Of a stretch of 14,706 bases of DNA, positions 2,985 through 13,148 are shown piece by piece (within the stretch, counting starts at the first letter, position 1; each line of letters opens with the position of its first letter). The notes under the pieces are model-generated. The model was not told the DNA's origin. It did not search any database and worked only from the letters and a program-made list of their open reading frames with translations. The translations under genes and the position numbers were made by a program. The DNA comes from Myxococcota bacterium (lineage in GTDB: Bacteria > Myxococcota_A > UBA796 > GCA-2862545). The stretch is taken from positions 1-14,706 of the forward strand of contig JBIKWC010000004.1 in NCBI GenBank assembly GCA_044356535.1. Reading direction: 5' to 3'.

Positions 2985-4081
2985 CAGGGACCTCCGAGGG
3001 GGAGCGCGCCCGCGAGGCGGGTCTGCAGGTGCAGGAACACGGTGTCGGTGCGGGCCAGCACCGCGCTGCCGGCGAGGGGAGCAGCGTCGGGGCCGAACCG
3101 GCGGGCCTCCCACCCCAGCACCAGCGCGGTCGGTGCGCCGGGCTCCGGCGGAAGGCGCAGGCCCGCGCCCAACAGCGCCAGGGTGGAGGCGGCGCCCGGC
3201 GCAGTGGGCAACGCGGTGGTGCGGTCCACGCGCCCGAAGGCGGCGAGGGGCGTCTGGTCTCCGCTGCGGGCCCACACCGAGGCGCCCGCGGGCCGCAGCG
3301 ACCCGTCTCCGAGGAGCCCCGTGCCCAGGAGGCCGTCCACACCGGCCGCGACCCAGGGGTGGGCGATGGAGACCATGGCCCCGGCGCGGTGATCGGGCGA
3401 CTGGCCGAGCCCGTAAGAGCCGTCGCGGCCCATCACCCCGAGCATCAGGTCCAGGTCGCTCCCGCTGCGTGCCAGCGGGTGGGCCCGGGCCACGACCGTG
3501 GTGTTCACGCCGTCGTTGCGCTCCCGGCGCTGGAAGCCCTCGCCCGAGGTCACCGACACCGTCACGTCCACGAGGTCGTCGGGGGCCGTCCACGACAGCC
3601 AGCCGCCCACGTCCGACCGGGTGAAGAAGGCGCTCTCCGTCACCATCGGACGCAACAAGGGGCGCCAGGCCCAGCCCGGCTGCACCGTCATCACCCAGGG
3701 GTCGTCCACCACGCCCCCGGCGACCGTAAGGCCCGCTTGGCGCCAGTCCCAGCGCGCCTCGGCGGTCTGCACCACGGGGACCAGGCTCTCGCCCGCGACG
3801 CCCACGTAGCCCTGCTCTCCGCCCGAGCGCAGCGGCAGCAGCACGATCCGGGCCTGGGCGTCCCCCGCCGAGCGCACCCCGAGCTCGGCCCGCGCCCACG
3901 GCAGCGACACCCCGCGCGACACGCCGGTGTCCGGGAACGACGCCCCCAGGCGGCCCGCAGCGCCCACGTCGCCGAACAGGCAGCCCCCGTCGAGGGGTTC
4001 GGCGCCGAGCGGTTCGGCCCGGGAGATCGGCGCGGGCGCGCAGTCGGCGGCCTCGGCGGAGGGGGTGAAGGCGAGGATCAT
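2984..4081 (-). CDS. hypothetical protein (365 aa), Gly/Ala/Leu-rich, no recognisable domain
   Basis: ATG at 4081 (minus) overlaps the upstream stop (ATGA). Its TGA at 2986-2984 overlaps the downstream ATG. Codon bias is good over the whole frame. In-frame sequence upstream of the ATG is Arg-rich junk. The N-terminus MILAFTPSAEAADCAPAPI is not a classical signal peptide, so the start or localisation is uncertain. Confidence 0.6.
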   Translation of the reverse strand: MILAFTPSAEAADCAPAPISRAEPLGAEPLDGGCLFGDVGAAGRLGASFPDTGVSRGVSLPWARAELGVRSAGDAQARIVLLPLRSGGEQGYVGVAGESLVPVVQTAEARWDWRQAGLTVAGGVVDDPWVMTVQPGWAWRPLLRPMVTESAFFTRSDVGGWLSWTAPDDLVDVTVSVTSGEGFQRRERNDGVNTTVVARAHPLARSGSDLDLMLGVMGRDGSYGLGQSPDHRAGAMVSIAHPWVAAGVDGLLGTGLLGDGSLRPAGASVWARSGDQTPLAAFGRVDRTTALPTAPGAASTLALLGAGLRLPPEPGAPTALVLGWEARRFGPDAAPLAGSAVLARTDTVFLHLQTRLAGALPLGGP

Positions 4082-5460
4082 CGTCCGTACGCTCCGAGCA
4101 GGGGTCCGAACGTGTCGAGCGCCGACACGAACAGTGCGTGGTCCGCGAGGGTGCGGTCGAGGTCCGGCAGCGCGTCCGCGACCCGCTCGTCGACGAAGGC
4201 GTCCGTACGGCCCCGCAGATCGGTCCACAACGCAGGCAGGGCGGGCTCGAGCTCGTGCGTGACGGTGCGCGCGTGGGCGCCGCCCAGCACGCCGCCCAAC
4301 ACCCGGGCCAGCGCCAGGGCGTCGTCGGTCCGGAGCGCTTCGAGGTCGCGGAGGGCCTTGTTGTGGTCGAGGGACTCCTGGAACGACGACCAGGTCTGGG
4401 TCTTGAACCCCTGGGCGCCGTCCGTGACGCCCCCGAGGCGCACGTCGGCGTCGGGGCGGGACCACAGGAGCTCCGCGGCGGCCACCAGGCGGGCGGGGTT
4501 GTCGTCGAACGACGCAGCGGGGATGGCCCACGAGTCCGGCAGGACCGGCGGATCCACGACCTCCCGCAGCTGAAGGAGCTCGTCGTCTTCGGGGCCCGGC
4601 GCGCCACGGTCCCAGGCCACCACGTACCGGAGGGCGGGGAGCGAGGCGATCCCAGCGCTCTCGCGGCGGGCGACGTCGAGCACGCGGAAGCCGTCGGGCG
4701 CGGGCCAGCGGGAGAGGAGGTGGTCGAGCTGCGCGTGTTGTTCTGCGTCGAGCGAGAGGAGCTCCGGCGCCCCGGGCCGGAACCGTCGACCCGAACCCAC
4801 CACCTCCGTGGCCTCCACGAGCTGCTCCCGCGTCACGCCTTCCTCGGTGACGTCGGTCCACAGGTGGTCCACGACGATCCCGCGGTCGGTGGGGACCGCA
4901 GGCCCCGTCCCCACCCCGGTGGTCGCGACCTGCTCGAGCTCGGTCACGTACGCCTCGGTGAACGCGCGCGCAGCCTCCTCGAGCGCTGGACGCGGGTACC
5001 CGGCGGCGTCCAACAACACCAGGAGGCCGAGCACCCCGCGGCGCACGTCCACGATGTAGGGGCCGAACCCGGCGCCGTCGAAGTCGTTGAACTCGAGCCG
5101 CAGCGGGACCTCGCCCGCCGTCGGACCGGGCCCCTCTCCGGGGAGGAAGGTGCCCACGTTCTCGGGGTGCGGATCGCCCACCAACAACACGGCGGCCGAG
5201 CCGGGGACGGAGACGAAGGCCGTGGGCGCGCGCCCGGTTCCGGGGCGGTCGAGGTCGCGCAGGAACACCGCGAGCGAGCCGCGCATGTAGTCGTAGGGGT
5301 CCTCCGCCATCGCGGCGTACTTCTCGGCCAGCGCGTCCCAGCGCCCCTCCCACACCCGGTTGTCGTCGGTGAGGGTGTCGACGAGCCACGCGCGCCGGAA
5401 CGCCTCCGGGGCAGTTGCGCCCGAACACCCCACCAGGAGCGCAGCCACTGCGATCCGCAC
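4078..5460 (-). CDS. DUF2252-like lipoprotein (460 aa), first gene of the minus-strand operon
   Basis: GTG at 5460 (minus), preceded by GAGGTGG. N-terminus (M)RIAVAALLVGCSG is a signal peptide plus lipobox. The motifs YDYMRGSLAVFLRD and LLVGDPHPENVGTF resemble the conserved FYRG...A.DL and CGDAHL.NFG blocks I associate with DUF2252 proteins; this is pattern recall, not a search. The stop at 4080-4078 overlaps the next ATG. Confidence 0.75.
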   Translation of the reverse strand: MRIAVAALLVGCSGATAPEAFRRAWLVDTLTDDNRVWEGRWDALAEKYAAMAEDPYDYMRGSLAVFLRDLDRPGTGRAPTAFVSVPGSAAVLLVGDPHPENVGTFLPGEGPGPTAGEVPLRLEFNDFDGAGFGPYIVDVRRGVLGLLVLLDAAGYPRPALEEAARAFTEAYVTELEQVATTGVGTGPAVPTDRGIVVDHLWTDVTEEGVTREQLVEATEVVGSGRRFRPGAPELLSLDAEQHAQLDHLLSRWPAPDGFRVLDVARRESAGIASLPALRYVVAWDRGAPGPEDDELLQLREVVDPPVLPDSWAIPAASFDDNPARLVAAAELLWSRPDADVRLGGVTDGAQGFKTQTWSSFQESLDHNKALRDLEALRTDDALALARVLGGVLGGAHARTVTHELEPALPALWTDLRGRTDAFVDERVADALPDLDRTLADHALFVSALDTFGPLLGAYGR

Positions 5461-5595
5461 CCACCACCTCGCGAGCGGGCTATCGGGCGAACCTCCGCGC
5501 GGCGGTGCCGTCTCGCATTCGTTGCGCAGCCCTCACGGGTTGGTCACACGGTGCGGCGGCGCCGCGTCGACTACAGTGCCGGCCCGGAGGGGTGG
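5461..5595. promoter_or_regulatory. divergent intergenic region, presumably holding promoters for the minus-strand lipoprotein operon and the plus-strand sensor/channel operon
   Basis: 135-bp non-coding gap between the divergent starts at 5460 (-) and 5596 (+). It contains a GGAGGGG ribosome-binding site at 5586-5592 for the plus-strand gene. I cannot read confident -35/-10 hexamers in this GC-rich context. Confidence 0.3.
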
Positions 5596-6702
5596 ATGTC
5601 GTTCGGCAGGCACGTCGTGGTGGTGATGGTGGTGTCGGCGGCCGCGGTCCTGCTCGGCAGCCTCGCCGTCGCCGACGGTCTGTTCGGCTCCCTCGTCGAG
5701 AAGGTCGAGGTCGACCGGTACCAGGCGATCGAGACCGCCCTGGTCGATCGCCTGGAAGAGGCGCAGAACAAGGCCCTCGCGCGCGCCACGATGGTCGCTG
5801 CCCTCCCCAGCGTGCAGGCGCTCGTGGCGGCCCAGGATCGGACCGGACTGCAGGCGGAGCTGGCCGAGCTGTACCAGTCCGCGCACGACCGCGGCGGGGT
5901 GGCGCAGGCCCAGTTCCACGTCCCGCCAGCGACCTCGCTCCTGCGGCTGCACGCGCCCGAGCGGTTCGGCGACGACCTGTCGAAGTTCCGCCCCATGGTC
6001 GTCGACGTGAACCAGGACCACGAGACCCGGAAGGGGCTGTCCATCGCCGTCGCGGGGCCCGCCATCTTCGGCATCACCCCCGTCCACGACGCCGCCGGCG
6101 CCCACGTCGGGAGCTTCGAGATCGGGCTCGACGTGGCGGATGCCCTCGACGCCCTCAAGGCGCGCTTCGAGGTGGACGCCGCGATCTGGCTCGACGAGAA
6201 GACCCTGCGCGACGTGGCCACCGGGGCCCCGCCCGGCAGCCTGTCGGAGGACAAGCGCGTGGGGCGCTTCCTGCGCTGGCACAGCACCCACGACGAGCGC
6301 ACCGCCGGCCTCGTCTCCGACGCCGACCTCGACGGGGGCGCGCACCGCTACGTGCGCGAGGTGCAGGGCGTGGCCTACGGGGTCGCGCTGGTGCCCGTCA
6401 CGAACTACGCGGGCAAGCCGCTCGGGGTCGCCATGGTCGCCGCCGACTTCAGCTCCTCGCGCGGTGCCCGCCTGCGTACCCGGGTGTGGTTGGGGCTCGT
6501 CGGGCTCGTCGGGAGCACCGTCCTCGCCGGCATCGTGTCCGTGGGCATCCGCGGCTTCGTGCTCCGCCCGCTCGGTTCCGTCGCGGCGACGCTCAAGGCG
6601 GTGGCGGACGGCGACCGGTCGAAGGGGCTCGAGACGGATGGGTTGTGCGCCGAGTTCGAGCCCGTGGCCGCCGAGATCGAGCGCCTGCGGAGCCGGCCGT
6701 GA
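5596..6702 (+). CDS. membrane protein with TM, a periplasmic Cache-like sensor domain, a second TM and a HAMP domain, and no output domain
   Basis: ATG at 5596, 4 nt after GGAGGGG. TM1 is HVVVVMVVSAAAVLLGSLAVA. The ~260-aa periplasmic region contains FHVPPATSLLRLHAPERFGDDLSKFRPMVVDV and ...YVREVQGVAYGVALVPV blocks typical of Cache-type (double-Cache / Cache_3-Cache_2-like) chemoreceptor or kinase sensors. TM2 is VWLGLVGLVGSTVLAGIVSVGI. It is followed by VLRPLGSVAATLKAVADGDRSKGLETDGLCAEFEPVAAEIERL, which has the HAMP pattern (P...A..GDL.......DE...L...FN.M). The protein ends 8 aa later at TGA 6700-6702. Confidence 0.8.
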   Translation: MSFGRHVVVVMVVSAAAVLLGSLAVADGLFGSLVEKVEVDRYQAIETALVDRLEEAQNKALARATMVAALPSVQALVAAQDRTGLQAELAELYQSAHDRGGVAQAQFHVPPATSLLRLHAPERFGDDLSKFRPMVVDVNQDHETRKGLSIAVAGPAIFGITPVHDAAGAHVGSFEIGLDVADALDALKARFEVDAAIWLDEKTLRDVATGAPPGSLSEDKRVGRFLRWHSTHDERTAGLVSDADLDGGAHRYVREVQGVAYGVALVPVTNYAGKPLGVAMVAADFSSSRGARLRTRVWLGLVGLVGSTVLAGIVSVGIRGFVLRPLGSVAATLKAVADGDRSKGLETDGLCAEFEPVAAEIERLRSRP

Positions 6703-7748
6703 CCCCGGCGCTCGCGGTGCTCGTCTCTGGGTCCGCGTTCGCCGCGCCCGAAGGGGTGACGCTCCCGACGGGCCGGGGGCTCCCCGTCCGGGTGCGGGTG
6801 GGTGTCCAGTACGTCGACGTGGGAAGCGTCGACGAGAACGCGCACACCTTCGACGGAACGGTGGATCTCCGGGCCGTGTGGATCGACGGCCGGGAGGCCT
6901 CGGCGCGCCGCGACGTCCTCGAGCTGCGCGGCGAGGCGCTGGAGGGCGCGCTCGACCAGACCTGGATCCCCGAGCTCGCCGTGGACAACCTCGTGGGCGA
7001 ACCCGCCCGGCTCGAGCGCACGTTGTCGGTCGCGCCCTCCGGCGAGCTCGAGCTCCTCCAGCGCGTCACCGGCACGTTCGCGATCCCCTTCGACCCTGCC
7101 GACTTCCCGTTCGATCGGAACGCGCTCGAGGTCGCGGTCGCCGTGCGCGGCGACGACACCAACCGCGTGGCGCTCGACTTCGTGCAGGCCGACCTCGCCT
7201 TCAGCCACGCCAACCCGGGTGTCGTGGTGCCCGGCTTCGACCATGGCCTCGTGGACCTCCGCCGCGCGCCGATCCGCGGCTGGCACGACGTCCTGCACAG
7301 CCGCGTCGTGGCTGCGCTCGCGGTCCGGCGGGTGGCCAGCACCACCATCCCGGCGGTGTTCCTGCCGCTGTTCGCGTCGTTGCTCATCCCGTTGCTGGCC
7401 ACCTGGCTCAACGACGTGGAGGACGGCTCGTTCAAGGTCGACGCGTTCGAGCTCGCGAACGTCGTCGTCGGCGGGCTGTTCGCGGTGATCGCGCTCAACT
7501 TCGCCATCGCCTCGAGCTACACGGACCTGGCCAGCGGCGACAACACGGTCAACCGCCTGTTCGCGTTGAACTACTCGGCGTTGGGCGTCGCCCTCCTGAT
7601 CGTGATCGTGTTGTACCGCTTCCGGTTCGTCGAGCGGTGGCTCGGCGCGTCGGTGCAGGAGGAGCTGTTCCGCTGGCTCGTGTGGGGGGTGCCCACGATC
7701 GTGTTCGGCGCGGCCGTGGCGGTGGTGAGCGCCGCCTGGGCGGGTTGA
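6699..7748 (+). CDS. prokaryotic pentameric ligand-gated ion channel (pLGIC / Cys-loop receptor family, GLIC/ELIC-like) homologue
   Basis: GTG at 6699 overlaps the upstream TGA (GTGA). Signal peptide (M)TPALAVLVSGSAFAAPEG. The extracellular domain has the family pattern VRVRVGVQYVDVGSVDENAHTFDGTVDLRAVWIDGR, then WIPELAVDNL, and the signature FPFD (IPFDPADFPFDRNALEV) with no Cys pair, as in bacterial members. Four C-terminal TM helices follow. M1 is TTIPAVFLPLFASLLIPLLATWL with the conserved Pro. M2 is ELANVVVGGLFAVIALNFAIASS, close to GLIC M2. M3 is NRLFALNYSALGVALLIVIVLY. M4 is FRWLVWGVPTIVFGAAVAVVSAA. Total length 349 aa. Confidence 0.85.
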   Translation: MTPALAVLVSGSAFAAPEGVTLPTGRGLPVRVRVGVQYVDVGSVDENAHTFDGTVDLRAVWIDGREASARRDVLELRGEALEGALDQTWIPELAVDNLVGEPARLERTLSVAPSGELELLQRVTGTFAIPFDPADFPFDRNALEVAVAVRGDDTNRVALDFVQADLAFSHANPGVVVPGFDHGLVDLRRAPIRGWHDVLHSRVVAALAVRRVASTTIPAVFLPLFASLLIPLLATWLNDVEDGSFKVDAFELANVVVGGLFAVIALNFAIASSYTDLASGDNTVNRLFALNYSALGVALLIVIVLYRFRFVERWLGASVQEELFRWLVWGVPTIVFGAAVAVVSAAWAG

Positions 7749-8687
7749 TCAGCGGAGCGAGCGGGCCAGCCGCACCCGCAGCGTTTCGTCGTCCAGGAGC
7801 TCGGCCATCGCGGCTACCCGGGACTGCGCGTGTTGGTCTCCCGGGCGGATCCGCAGGACCATCAAGAGCGCCATCGCGCGGAGGCGCACGTGGCCTCCGT
7901 CTCCGGCGTGCCGGGCGGCGTCGGCGGCGTGGGCCAGGGCCTCGTCGGCGCGTCCGGACCGCCACGCGGCGTAGGCCAGGCCGTTGCAGCGGCGGGCGCG
8001 GGCGAAGGGGGGCCCGATCTCGGGGAGCGAGCGGTACAGCGCCTCGGCGCCAGCGTGGTCGCCAGAGGCGTTCCGTCGGAACGCGTGGTGATCGACCCAC
8101 CGAGCGCGCAGCACGGAGGCGGTGTCGCGGTCGGCGACGAGGGGCAGCGCGGCCTCCACCTCGTCGAGCAGCGTGAGGTCGCGCTCGCGGGCCTTGGTCG
8201 CCACGAAGTCGTCGGCCAGCCGACGCTCGATGCGGGCCTCGGGTGGGGCGTGGGCTTCGTCGCGGCGGGCCTCGGCGGTGGCGGCGGCCATGGCCCCGGT
8301 GTCGTGTGCGCGCTGCGCCACGGACGCGCGAGCGAGGGCGAGCCAGACCCGGGCCTCGGGAGCGGCCGTGACCGGCGGGTGGTCCCAGGCGCGGATCAGG
8401 TCGGCGCAGACGGACACGGGCAGGTCGGTGAACCGCGAGTGGTACGCGCCCATCCACGCGAGGCGGCGGAGGACCTCTCCAGGGAGCCCGAACCGCCGGA
8501 GCAACCGCTGGCCCCACTGCCCTCCGTCCCGGGTGCCGCGGGCCCGCAAGCGGCGGAGCGCGCGCTCGGTCGAGGCCGGCGTGGTCGGCGCCAGGGTCTC
8601 GGCGAGCGCGGTGAGGGTACCGTGTTCGGAGACGAGGGCGTCGAGGTAGGCGGCCCAGTCGTAGCCGGGCGGGGCAGTGGTGGGCAT
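7749..8687 (-). CDS. hypothetical helical protein (312 aa), possibly a TPR-like or regulatory protein
   Basis: ATG at 8687 (minus); MPTTAPPGYDWAAYLDALVSEHGTLTALAETL... Coding bias is consistent. The C-terminal half is Ala/Arg-rich with helical-repeat character (NGLAYAAWRSGRADEALAHAADAARHAGD). The stop at 7751-7749 abuts the convergent pLGIC stop (TGATCA). No confident domain assignment. Confidence 0.65.
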   Translation of the reverse strand: MPTTAPPGYDWAAYLDALVSEHGTLTALAETLAPTTPASTERALRRLRARGTRDGGQWGQRLLRRFGLPGEVLRRLAWMGAYHSRFTDLPVSVCADLIRAWDHPPVTAAPEARVWLALARASVAQRAHDTGAMAAATAEARRDEAHAPPEARIERRLADDFVATKARERDLTLLDEVEAALPLVADRDTASVLRARWVDHHAFRRNASGDHAGAEALYRSLPEIGPPFARARRCNGLAYAAWRSGRADEALAHAADAARHAGDGGHVRLRAMALLMVLRIRPGDQHAQSRVAAMAELLDDETLRVRLARSLR

Positions 8688-8750: not shown

Positions 8751-9776
8751 GTGAACCGGACCATCATCATCGGAGACATCCACGCGTGCCACGCCGAGCT
8801 CGTCGAGCTCCTGGACGCCGTCGGCCTCACCCCCACGGACCGGCTGATCAGCGTCGGGGACGTGGTCGATCGGGGCCCCTCGCCGGGGGAGGTCGTGGAC
8901 CTGCTGCGGTCGCGCCCGAACACAGTCGTGGTGTGCGGGAACCACGAGCGCAAACACGTGCGGGGCCAGCAGACGCCCGGGCTCCTCGGCTTCGGCCAGG
9001 AGATCACCCGGCTGCAGCTGGGGGCGCGCTACGCGGAGGTCGTGGCGTGGATGGCCACACTGCCCTACTCGTTCGAGGACGACGCCGTGCGCGTGGTCCA
9101 CGCGGGCCTGATCCCGGGCACGCCGCTGGGTGACACCCCCGCGGACATCCTGTCGGGCACGACCAGCGGCGAAGCCCGCCTCCGGGAGCAGCTGGGGGGC
9201 GTCTACTGGCCGGAGCTGTACACCGACGACAAGGTGGTGGTGTTCGGGCACCACGTGGTGGGCCCGGAGGCGCTGGTGGTGCGCGACCGGGTGTACGGCC
9301 TGGACACGGGCTGCTGCCACGGCCAGTTCCTGACGGCGCTGATCCTGCCGGAGCGGCGCCTGGTCTCGGTGCGGGCCCACGCGAACCACTGGAAGCAGAC
9401 GCAGCAGCGTTGGCAGCTCCCGGTGCTCGCTTCTCGGCCCTGGGCAGCGTGGACGTTCGACCAGGTGGCGAAGAAGGCAGCAGAGCTGACGGACCGACAC
9501 CCGGCAGCTGCGGACTGGCTGGCTTCGGTGGTGGCGTGGTCGGAGGCAGTGTTGGGCTGGGTCCCCGCGCTGGCGGACGCGATGGACACGCGGTTGGCGG
9601 GGGTCGCGGACGCGCCCCGGGACCTCGTGGGCCACCCGGCGCACCCGACGCTGGTCCGGTACGCCCAGGGCAAGCTGTCGAGGACCCACCTGGGCTGCAC
9701 CTCGCCCGCCGCGGTGTTCGCGCTCGCGGACGCGCTGGGCGTACCCGTGGCGCTCCCGCGGTCGCCTCCGGGGTGA
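8751..9776 (+). CDS. PPP-family metallophosphoesterase (Ser/Thr protein phosphatase / ApaH-like) with a ~120-aa C-terminal extension
   Basis: GTG at 8751, 6 nt after AGGAGG (8739-8744). Canonical motifs are present: IIIGDIHAC (a GDxHG variant), GDVVDRGP (GDxVDRG), and GNHE. Downstream come VVHAGL and GHHV. 341 aa. The C-terminal ~120 aa (WKQTQQRWQLPVL...) lie outside the phosphatase core. Confidence 0.85.
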   Translation: MNRTIIIGDIHACHAELVELLDAVGLTPTDRLISVGDVVDRGPSPGEVVDLLRSRPNTVVVCGNHERKHVRGQQTPGLLGFGQEITRLQLGARYAEVVAWMATLPYSFEDDAVRVVHAGLIPGTPLGDTPADILSGTTSGEARLREQLGGVYWPELYTDDKVVVFGHHVVGPEALVVRDRVYGLDTGCCHGQFLTALILPERRLVSVRAHANHWKQTQQRWQLPVLASRPWAAWTFDQVAKKAAELTDRHPAAADWLASVVAWSEAVLGWVPALADAMDTRLAGVADAPRDLVGHPAHPTLVRYAQGKLSRTHLGCTSPAAVFALADALGVPVALPRSPPG

Positions 9777-11867: not shown

Positions 11868-13148
11868 ATGGCCAAGAGCGCAGCCGTGGAAGTCGAGGCC
11901 GCCGGGCGGCTGGTGCGGGTGTCCAACCCCGACAAACCCTGGTTCCCGGAGGCCGGGATCACCAAGCTCGAGGTGGTCCGCTACTACCTCGCGGTGGCGG
12001 ACGGCGCGCTGCGTGGGGTGTGGGGTCGGCCCATGCAGCTCGAGCGGTACGTCGACGGCGTCACCGAGCCGCCCTTCTACCAGAAGCGCGCGCCCGACAA
12101 GGGCCGCCCGGAGTGGATCGAGACCGTCACGCTGCGGTTCCCGTCGATGCGCACGGCCGAGGAGGTCGTCGTCCGCGACGCCGCCCAGCTCGTGTGGATC
12201 GTGAACCTCGCGTGCCTGTCGCTGCACCCACACCCCGTGCGCACCACCGACCTCGATCATCCCGACGAGCTGCGGATCGACCTCGATCCCGTCCCGGGCG
12301 TGCCGTTCTCCGAGGTGCTGGAGGTGGCCCGGGAGACCCGCGCGCTGCTGACCGAGCTCGGGCTCACCTCCTGGCCCAAGACCTCGGGGTCGCGCGGTGT
12401 GCACCTGCTGGTCCGGCTCCAGCCGCGGTGGACGTTCCCCGAGGTCCGTCGGGCCGCCCTCGCCATCGCGCGGGAGGTCGAGCGCCGGATGCCCGGGAGG
12501 GCCACGTCGAAGTGGTGGAAGGAGGAGCGCCAGGGCGTGTTCCTCGACTACAACCAGAACGCGAAGGACCGCACCACCGCCAGCGCGTACTCCGTCCGGG
12601 CGCGCCCCGACGGTCGGGTGTCGATGCCGTTCCGCTGGGACGAGCTCGACGGCCTCGACCCCGCCGCCTTCACCGTGCGCACGGTCCCGGGGCTGTTCCT
12701 CGCGAACGGAGACGCCCACGAGGGCATCGACGACGTGGCGCACGAGCTCGGCCCCGTCCTGGCGCTCGCCGACCAGCAGGGCGAGGCGGACGCGCCGTGG
12801 CCGCCGCACTTCCCGAAGGGGGAAGGCGAGCCCGCACCGGTGGCGCCGAGCCGCCAGCGGACAGAGCCGGGTACCGGCCGCCGCAAGCCGACGAAGCCCT
12901 TGCGCACCGTGGCCGAGTCGGAGTCCCTCGACGACGCCACGGCGGGGCTCGAGCGCTGGAAGGCCCGCCACGCCGAGGTCGTACCGCACCTGTTGCCCGC
13001 CGACGTGCTCGTCGACAAGATGCGGGGCCGGTACAGGCCGTGGTTCCGGATCCGCGTGAACCTCGAGCACGTGCCCCTCGCGCTCCACCCGCCGGTCGAG
13101 CCCCCAGACCCCGACGCCGCCCCCAAGGCTGCGTGGGGACCGGGGTGA
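11868..13148 (+). CDS. ligD: stand-alone LigD polymerase/primase domain protein (NHEJ PolDom, archaeo-eukaryotic primase fold)
   Basis: ATG at 11868 (GAGGTAGG upstream). N-terminus RLVRVSNPDKPWFPEAGITKLEVVRYY and the catalytic block SWPKTSGSRGVHLLV (KTSG.RG.H) are hallmarks of the LigD Pol domain. 426 aa with a Pro/Arg-rich C-terminal tail. There is no ligase or nuclease domain in this ORF. TGA at 13146-13148. Confidence 0.88.
   Translation: MAKSAAVEVEAAGRLVRVSNPDKPWFPEAGITKLEVVRYYLAVADGALRGVWGRPMQLERYVDGVTEPPFYQKRAPDKGRPEWIETVTLRFPSMRTAEEVVVRDAAQLVWIVNLACLSLHPHPVRTTDLDHPDELRIDLDPVPGVPFSEVLEVARETRALLTELGLTSWPKTSGSRGVHLLVRLQPRWTFPEVRRAALAIAREVERRMPGRATSKWWKEERQGVFLDYNQNAKDRTTASAYSVRARPDGRVSMPFRWDELDGLDPAAFTVRTVPGLFLANGDAHEGIDDVAHELGPVLALADQQGEADAPWPPHFPKGEGEPAPVAPSRQRTEPGTGRRKPTKPLRTVAESESLDDATAGLERWKARHAEVVPHLLPADVLVDKMRGRYRPWFRIRVNLEHVPLALHPPVEPPDPDAAPKAAWGPG

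Follow-up and report, generated by a model that had tools for sequence, protein, structure and literature searches.

Introduction

What can a membrane sensor signal to when its polypeptide ends at a predicted HAMP domain and the next gene encodes an ion channel? This question is raised by two overlapping genes in a stretch of 14,706 nucleotides from a Myxococcota bacterium (contig JBIKWC010000004.1, assembly GCA_044356535.1), the whole of which is called the window here. Gene 1 encodes a Cache-HAMP sensor without an output domain, and gene 2 encodes a subunit of a pentameric ligand-gated ion channel (pLGIC). An earlier note on this DNA, made from its letters alone, had described both genes in these terms and had not recognised the arrangement as a characterised one. 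We found that sensor and channel genes occur as an obligate, co-inherited pair. We further propose that they form a self-contained two-gene sensory channel module, in which the sensor would bind a periplasmic ligand and directly modulate gating as an auxiliary subunit; on this proposal as a whole our judgment is evenly balanced.

The bacterial pLGICs GLIC, ELIC, and DeCLIC are structural models for human neurotransmitter receptors. To our knowledge, neither the native ligand nor the physiological role is known for most bacterial pLGICs, and a partner protein is known for none of them. In the cassette described here, which is widespread and tightly conserved, a sensor of the chemoreceptor type is genetically linked to a bacterial pLGIC. 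It bears on two questions, namely how an accessory sensor may regulate a pentameric channel and what a terminal HAMP domain may do.

Conservation of the sensor-channel pair

We scanned genomes from the channel side with one genome per species; 129 relatives were returned, of which 80 loci were retained. Sensor and channel genes were called with home-built hidden Markov models, and the residue-conservation counts given throughout refer to 77 family members. Wherever the upstream DNA was long enough (78 loci and the window), a sensor gene was located directly 5' of the channel gene on the same strand. The GTGA overlap of the gene 1 stop with the gene 2 start, which had been noted in the window, proved to be the rule, since an ATGA or GTGA (RTGA) overlap was observed in 75 of 82 sensor-channel pairs. 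In three neighbourhoods of channel homologues, on Polyangiaceae-like and Rhizomicrobium contigs, a dCache_3 gene of 371-381 aa ended 4 nt inside the channel gene, and the flanks of these loci were unrelated to one another. The same pairing was seen from the sensor side: the most divergent full-length matches, P0231 (37% identity) and P0235 (27%), also sit just 5' of a pLGIC gene. Chance adjacency was therefore ruled out by the pairing from both sides together with the RTGA overlap.

The hosts of the pair were Myxococcota, Verrucomicrobiota, Acidobacteriota, Alpha-, Beta-, and Gammaproteobacteria, and Leptospiraceae. The pair is thereby spread over at least six phyla, while all of its neighbouring genes change. 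Within 4 kb on either side, no third gene was conserved; the best recurrent neighbour was present in 11 of the 80 loci, all from close relatives, and a third conserved operon member was rejected on this ground. Sensor and channel had diverged equally, with mean pairwise distances of 0.534 and 0.528, respectively, and their distance matrices were correlated (r=0.887, Mantel p<=0.001). These distances show a long co-inheritance of the two genes without partner exchange. Functional coupling of sensor and channel is strongly supported.

The null reading of the operon would be mere co-regulation, that is, two membrane receptors that answer to one environmental condition yet act independently. Nothing specific speaks for it, and we consider it very improbable, because the output-less sensor would be functionless alone, and because the pairing has been kept over these phyla and into a sister clade of only 26-27% identity, with all surrounding genes changed.

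Two further observations were made on individual loci. In two Rhizomicrobium loci (L002, 6236-7015; L003, 2575-3354), a gene for a Bestrophin-like channel lies ~100 nt 3' of the pair on the same strand; it is not conserved at other loci. Two loci from metagenome-assembled genomes labelled 'uncultured Clostridia' (L008 and L017) carry pairs that are 46-49% identical to the window channel, within the range of the myxobacterial and proteobacterial loci, which may point to mis-binning or horizontal transfer.

Domain architecture of the sensor

The gene 1 product matched dCache_3 (PF14827) with E=1.6e-28 (100.4 bits compared to a cut-off of 25.7) over residues 39-286. The match covers positions 5-236 of the 239 in the profile, and dCache_3 was also found in 31 of 31 aligned homologues. 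The AlphaFold2 (AF2) model, with a predicted local distance difference test score (pLDDT) of 90.6, shows in order a helix at residues 5-68 (the first transmembrane helix, TM1, and a stalk), two PAS-like modules, a helix at 286-337 (TM2 and the first amphipathic segment of HAMP, AS1), a connector, and the second amphipathic segment (AS2) at 352-366. Residues R5/H6 lie on the cytoplasmic side of TM1, and W298 in TM2 was kept in 70 of 77 homologues. When the periplasmic part was compared using Foldseek, the double-Cache sensors DctB, Mlp24/37, PctA, vpHK1S-Z8, and rpHK1S-Z16 were retrieved, and the distal module resembled CitA (TMt 0.8). A profile of the whole sensor gave only weak CitA/DcuS-like matches among PDB sequences (E ~0.01), from which no ligand was inferable.

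The residues of the distal pocket are conserved to a high degree: R117 and R132 in 77/77 members, F107 in 76/77, and H108 in 70/77. The pocket motif is thus conserved as in true chemoreceptors, which argues that ligand binding is likely retained. This result bears on another role for gene 1, namely that of an assembly, stability, or localisation factor that would fold, pentamerise, or position the channel (for example at a pole or in receptor arrays) independently of any ligand. Obligate pairs with coupled translation are typically found for chaperones and their clients and for scaffold pairs, and eukaryotic pLGICs require dedicated assembly factors. However, the strict conservation of the distal pocket speaks against such a factor, as does the fact that GLIC, ELIC, and other bacterial pLGICs assemble unaided, and we regard this role as unlikely.

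Next, we analyzed the C-terminal region. The Pfam HAMP profile (PF00672) remained below threshold in gene 1 (E=0.069, 13.9 bits compared to a cut-off of 25) and gave any match in just 6 of 31 homologues, the best with E=0.0015. Hence, HAMP identity was examined using a profile built from 26 C-termini of the family, which was run against all PDB sequences. This tail profile matched the archetypal Af1503 HAMP with E=5e-5, over residues 3-48 of the 54-residue construct, and its best 17 PDB matches were all HAMP constructs. The key positions of HAMP were likewise kept, including the Pro that opens AS1 (P325, 77/77), the Gly of the connector (G339, 67/77), and the Glu that opens AS2 (E353, 76/77). 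Moreover, the region aligned column by column with the Pfam-positive HAMPs of relatives among the methyl-accepting chemotaxis proteins (MCPs). Together, these comparisons indicate that the C-terminus of gene 1 corresponds to a complete HAMP domain despite its sub-threshold Pfam score.

As observed, the protein stops 2 residues past AS2, and its homologues stop a median of 9 residues past AS2 (n=77) with variable sequence. Pfam gave no domain besides dCache_3 and HAMP in gene 1; HisKA/HATPase_c and GGDEF/EAL profiles had no match at E<=1, no cyclase domain is present, and the kinase-control domain MCPsignal had no Pfam match. The JGI annotation of gene 1 as an MCP was accordingly rejected, as the protein is without MCPsignal and ends just after AS2. 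A sensor histidine kinase or a GGDEF/EAL sensor was rejected as well, there being no such Pfam match here or in 115 homologues. The order of TM helix, periplasmic Cache domain, TM helix, and complete HAMP that the earlier note had read from the translation, together with its statement that no output domain follows, agrees with these results.

The terminal HAMP also raises the reverse direction of signalling, in which the channel would be the primary sensor or the source of a local ion signal, and HAMP would relay it to an unlinked cytoplasmic partner such as a kinase, a chemotaxis array, or a cyclic di-GMP (c-di-GMP) enzyme. This would fit the design of HAMP domains as transmitters, the descent of the family from chemoreceptors, and the conservation of the key HAMP residues. 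On the other hand, no third gene accompanies the pair across the 80 loci, the short and variable tail after AS2 offers no obvious docking surface, and a terminal HAMP has no known means of controlling an enzyme in trans. We therefore judge a relay from channel to sensor to be distinctly improbable.

One residue of the HAMP domain differs from the usual pattern. The first position of AS2, usually the Asp of 'DEIG', is C351 in gene 1 (codon 6646-6648); among 77 members, 50 have Cys and 14 have Pro here. Located in the cytoplasm and within a dimeric HAMP, such a conserved Cys could respond to redox state or to metals.

Origin of the sensor

The sensor profile was run exhaustively against 1.84 billion representative sequences. 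Approximately 75 clusters (at 50% identity) scored above ~205 bits, and nearly all of them were of the 360-395-aa output-less type. Directly below ~205 bits were proteins of 600-1500 aa, and those sampled were dCache_3-HAMP-MCPsignal chemoreceptors. These chemoreceptors, the closest relatives that have an output domain, are homologous to gene 1 throughout TM1-dCache_3-TM2-HAMP (~180-211 bits, residues ~1-365) and have the distal-pocket motif in common with it: QFHxPPATSxLRLHxPxxFGDDLxxFRP in the channel-linked sensors matches QFHxPPATSFLRLHxxxKFGDDLSxFR in the dCache_3 MCPs nearly letter by letter. In contrast, the MCPs run on into MCPsignal, at times with PAS, HNOB, or CZB domains, whereas the window family ends past AS2 and has a membrane-proximal Cache module specific to the channel-linked sensors.

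The 115 sensor homologues were all 357-385 aa long or fragments, with dCache_3 as their sole Pfam match. The alternative raised earlier, that gene 1 is a truncated remnant of a histidine kinase or MCP without conserved pairing to the channel, does not agree with this family of ~370-aa stand-alone proteins beside a pLGIC, and with the similar length of the cluster representatives above ~205 bits it was rejected. Therefore, the sensor is best described as the input and HAMP module of a chemoreceptor without its kinase-control domain. Its family is a stable one, and gene 1 is not a gene in decay. Some members of the family have extra N-terminal sensor modules: P0245 and P0271 combine 4HB_MCP_1 with dCache_3, and P0257 has dCache_3 in tandem.

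Features of the channel

Pfam placed gene 2 below threshold for Neur_chan_LBD (20.9 bits compared to a cut-off of 26), and PF02931 was carried by nearly all of its listed homologues. Using phmmer against the PDB, gene 2 matched GLIC with 8e-14 over residues 28-245, which comprise the extracellular domain and M1. The AF2 model (pLDDT 92, predicted template modelling score 0.85) matched full-length GLIC using Foldseek with E=2.5e-23 and TMt 0.82-0.84. By profile and predicted fold, the gene 2 product is a genuine pLGIC, and the assignment given in the earlier note from the FPFD signature and the helices M1-M4 survived both kinds of search.

The channel resembles GLIC and ELIC in the fold of the whole subunit, in its Pro-loop FPFD, in having four TM helices, and in the shortness of its M3-M4 loop. 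In contrast, the identity to GLIC/ELIC is only 22-23%, and the M1-M2 loop is ~11 residues longer and is predicted to form a hairpin, in which F245 is kept in 77/77 and G243 in 68/77. In M2, residues E251, N254, G258, G259, F261, A265, and F268 are invariant in 77/77. Alignment with GLIC would place E251 at −1', G258 at 6', F261 at 9', and F268 at 16', so that the window channel, unlike GLIC/ELIC, would have F at 9' and 16' and G-G at 6'/7'. The channel is probably cation-selective, because a glutamate occupies the presumed −1' position. Conservation extends to M3 (N291 in 74/77, Y292 in 77/77) and M4 (W329 in 76/77, P332 in 77/77). A further difference is that GLIC and ELIC are stand-alone homopentamers, whereas the window channel has an obligate operon partner.

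The extracellular domain keeps residues of the binding loops, with R58 and W61 in 77/77, W89-x-P91 in 75-76/77, and a conserved G194-W195 in loop C. These residues would suit ligand capture and hand-off, whereby the Cache protein concentrates or pre-binds a ligand that the channel's own extracellular domain then binds, with no conformational signal passing between the proteins; such a role was put forward for fused and operonic partners with periplasmic binding protein (PBP) or Cache domains (PMC549065). However, this function could do without TM2 and without a conserved cytoplasmic HAMP, the job is usually done by soluble periplasmic binding proteins, and the strict 1:1 translational coupling and equal evolutionary rates fit a structural partnership better. 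Capture and hand-off thus appears quite unlikely.

Proposed mechanism

With an output-less sensor and no conserved third gene, the channel would be left as the only effector of the module, and the output is most plausibly ion flux. In the two-gene module that we propose, both proteins are produced from one transcript, with their translation coupled via the GTGA overlap, and both are inner-membrane proteins whose ligand-binding domains face the periplasm. A small periplasmic ligand would first be bound in the membrane-distal Cache pocket of the sensor, the motif of which is as in related chemoreceptors. Subsequently, a conformational change of TM2/HAMP, or else the membrane-proximal Cache module, would modulate gating of the adjoining channel, with which the sensor would be in physical contact. 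The signal would thus pass from sensor to channel, and the output would be a flow of ions or a shift in membrane potential instead of phosphorylation. The coupling path would run through the TM2-HAMP unit, perhaps also through the M1-M2 hairpin of the channel or the family-specific proximal Cache module. Each of the rival explanations given above accounts for fewer observations than this auxiliary-subunit model.

Several points weigh against the model. Because Cache-HAMP receptors usually form dimers whereas pLGICs form pentamers, the symmetries of the two would not match in a defined complex. The mirror-tree correlation of the two genes reflects co-inheritance and not interaction. When mutual information with average product correction was calculated from 77 pairs, the 99.9th percentile between the proteins was 0.361, compared to 0.369 and 0.345 within them, and the top inter-protein pairs include topologically impossible ones between HAMP and the extracellular domain. 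A conserved cytoplasmic HAMP would be needless if the sensor acted in the periplasm alone. Furthermore, with R58, W61, and G194-W195 retained, the extracellular domain of the channel may bind a ligand of its own. On the supporting side, the seven invariant M2 residues and the conserved P325 and E353 point to selection on the pore and on HAMP. Cache and PBP domains that are fused to bacterial pLGICs or operonic with them have been read likewise (PMC549065).

A stricter form of the auxiliary-subunit model can be stated only tentatively. In this form, the Cache-HAMP protein would be an obligate auxiliary subunit, a chemoreceptor that gates an ion channel instead of CheA, with the signal running via TM2/HAMP to the TM domain or the M1-M2 hairpin of the channel. 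If true, the complex would be a hetero-oligomeric pLGIC, the first from a prokaryote, and would represent a new output mode of HAMP. The pair is found in culturable and tractable organisms, including Rhizobium herbae, R. populisoli, R. terrae, Azorhizobium oxalatiphilum, Bosea, Brevundimonas, and Polaromonas. Since the distal Cache pocket is common with chemoreceptors, the soluble sensor domain could yield a natural agonist for a bacterial pLGIC.

Relation to known systems

Prokaryotic pLGICs were discovered by Tasneem, Iyer, Jakobsson, and Aravind (Genome Biol 2004; PMC549065), who described N-terminal fusions of bacterial pLGICs to PBP-I and to MCP-N plus Cache. They further predicted that some bacterial pLGICs share an operon with stand-alone PBP-II proteins and that, in Rhodopseudomonas alone, the operon partner is a stand-alone Cache protein. 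It was proposed that these stand-alone proteins cooperate with the pLGIC of the operon, and an analogy to the α2-δ auxiliary subunit was already drawn (PMC549065). In Jaiteh et al. (2016), operons and accessory domains go unmentioned. No later description of, or experiment on, a pLGIC paired with a stand-alone Cache protein was found in the literature searched, and the HAMP ending and the breadth of the pair were in none of it. The arrangement was therefore predicted from one genome 20 years ago and is of an experimentally uncharacterised kind. The view of the earlier note that it is uncharacterised stands as far as experiments are concerned, but the novelty was overstated.

The closest known case is RPA2858 of Rhodopseudomonas palustris, where a separate Cache-domain gene likewise adjoins a plain, co-directional pLGIC gene (PMC549065). 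A link to this case was found in Rhizobium terrae, in which the channel L084 shows 41-53% identity to the sequence blocks published for RPA2858 and lies 4 nt 3' of P0235, a 368-aa homologue of the window sensor (E=2e-22). The architecture of the RPA2858 type and that of the window are therefore the same. In contrast to the RPA2858 type, the window channel, which is 26% identical to L084, has its own M2 sequence, GGLFAVIALNF, and the M1-M2 hairpin insertion. By these identities, the window pair belongs to a clade that is sister to the 2004 arrangement. The 2004 account of RPA2858 concerned one genome; it covered neither the membrane anchoring and HAMP ending of the partner nor its relation to MCPs, nor did it describe the overlap of start and stop codons or the phylogenetic breadth. 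What is added here is a HAMP-terminated, MCP-derived partner, near-universal RTGA coupling, the lack of any other conserved gene, distribution over at least six phyla, and clade-specific features of the channel.

Rhizobium terrae NAU-18 carries two paralogous pairs, L059 and L084, one of the window type and the other of the RPA2858 type. Two clades therefore coexist in one genome, and they presumably sense different things.

Fused bacterial pLGICs (with PBP-I or MCP-N plus Cache, and DeCLIC with its N-terminal domain) similarly tie an extra periplasmic ligand-binding module to a GLIC-like core. Unlike these, the module in the window is a polypeptide of its own with two TM helices and a cytoplasmic HAMP, and it is not placed atop the extracellular domain. 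The α2-δ subunit of animal voltage-gated Ca2+ channels is also a Cache-domain protein that serves as a channel accessory, an analogy of function only, which is putative for the window sensor. However, α2-δ has dCache_1 and not dCache_3, has no HAMP, and belongs to an unrelated channel family.

Layout of the locus

The G+C content of the window is 73.6%, and frame statistics based on third-position GC (GC3) picked out two co-directional open reading frames (ORFs) at 5596-7748, both frames being backed. Base composition and the closest homologues point to a Myxococcota-like genome. The features of the two genes are collected in Table 1.

Table 1. Features of the sensor-channel locus, with positions numbered from the first letter of the window
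Feature	Position	Strand	Details and basis
GGAGGGG, Shine-Dalgarno-like, 5' of gene 1	5586..5592	+	3-5 nt ahead of ATG 5596; sequence
Gene 1: sensor, TM1-dCache_3-TM2-HAMP	5596..6702	+	ATG 5596, TGA 6700-6702, 368 aa; translation, Pfam, AF2
TM1	5611..5685	+	residues ~6-30, hydrophobic HVVVVMVVSAAAVLLGSLAVADGLF; runs on into periplasmic stalk helix (AF2 helix 5-68)
Double-Cache sensor domain (dCache_3), periplasmic	5710..6453	+	residues 39-286; distal module ~82-191, proximal ~194-284; Pfam
TM2	6484..6549	+	residues ~297-318, hydrophobic VWLGLVGLVGSTVLAGIVSVGI; AF2 helix 286-337 continues into AS1
HAMP (predicted), cytoplasmic	6550..6693	+	residues 319-366: AS1, connector, AS2; family tail profile vs PDB
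Alternative in-frame GTG for gene 2	6645..6647	+	would prepend MRRVRARGRRDRAPAEPAV and lengthen the overlap to 58 nt; translation
GGAG, Shine-Dalgarno-like, within gene 1	6689..6692	+	6 nt ahead of gene 2 start; sequence
GTGA start/stop overlap	6699..6702	+	gene 2 GTG 6699-6701, gene 1 TGA 6700-6702; read off sequence
Gene 2: pLGIC subunit	6699..7748	+	GTG 6699, TGA 7746-7748, 349 aa; phmmer, AF2, Foldseek
Signal peptide, predicted	6699..6743	+	MTPALAVLVSGSAFA/AP; aligns with homologues' signal peptides; low pLDDT at residues 1-20
β-sandwich extracellular domain, periplasmic	6747..7334	+	residues ~17-212; GLIC alignment, AF2 strands 30-211
Pro-loop FPFD	7104..7115	+	residues 136-139; 77/77 invariant; aligns to GLIC YPFD
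M1	7335..7406	+	residues 213-236; AF2 helix, GLIC M1 alignment
M1-M2 insertion, cytoplasmic, clade-specific β-hairpin	7407..7442	+	residues 237-248, NDVEDGSFKVDA; AF2 strands 239-241, 244-246
M2 pore helix	7443..7517	+	residues 249-273; AF2 helix
M3	7545..7619	+	residues 283-307; AF2 helix
M4	7647..7742	+	residues 317-348; AF2 helix

Two start codons were considered for gene 2. Translation from GTG 6699 gives the signal peptide MTPALAVLVSGSAFA/AP, which has no basic residue, unlike those of the displayed homologues. Translation from GTG 6645 would add an Arg-rich, basic n-region to the signal peptide (MRRVRARGRRDRAPAEPAV). GTG 6645 is nonetheless the less likely start, because the RTGA overlap is the norm of the family and homologous channels that start at this overlap have ordinary signal peptides.

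The pair is bounded on the 5' side by a divergent DUF2252 gene on the minus strand (4078-5460, Pfam 6.9e-31) and on the 3' side by a convergent 312-aa ORF without a Pfam match (7749-8687, minus strand). With a divergent gene upstream and a convergent ORF downstream, the transcription unit therefore consists of exactly two genes. A scan of positions 5300-8000 revealed neither a σ70 consensus promoter nor a terminator-like structure. The TGA of gene 2 abuts the stop of the convergent ORF with zero intergenic bases, and the two stops form the palindrome TGATCA (7746-7751).

Further genes of the window were also identified. Two adjacent genes on the minus strand (514-1767 and ~1758-2984) each encode a lipoprotein that contains a Lamin Tail Domain (Pfam LTD, 2e-31 and 1.9e-18, respectively). 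The former has a long acidic (Asp-Thr/Asp-Ala/Asp-Ser)n repeat immediately after its lipobox, and the latter has a MopE-like metal-binding motif at 9.5e-06 (26.2 bits, slightly under the 27-bit cut-off). On the plus strand, 8751-9776 encodes a calcineurin-like metallophosphoesterase (Pfam 2.7e-12) and 11868-13148 a stand-alone LigD primase-polymerase (Pfam 3.2e-84), both of which are unrelated neighbours of the pair.

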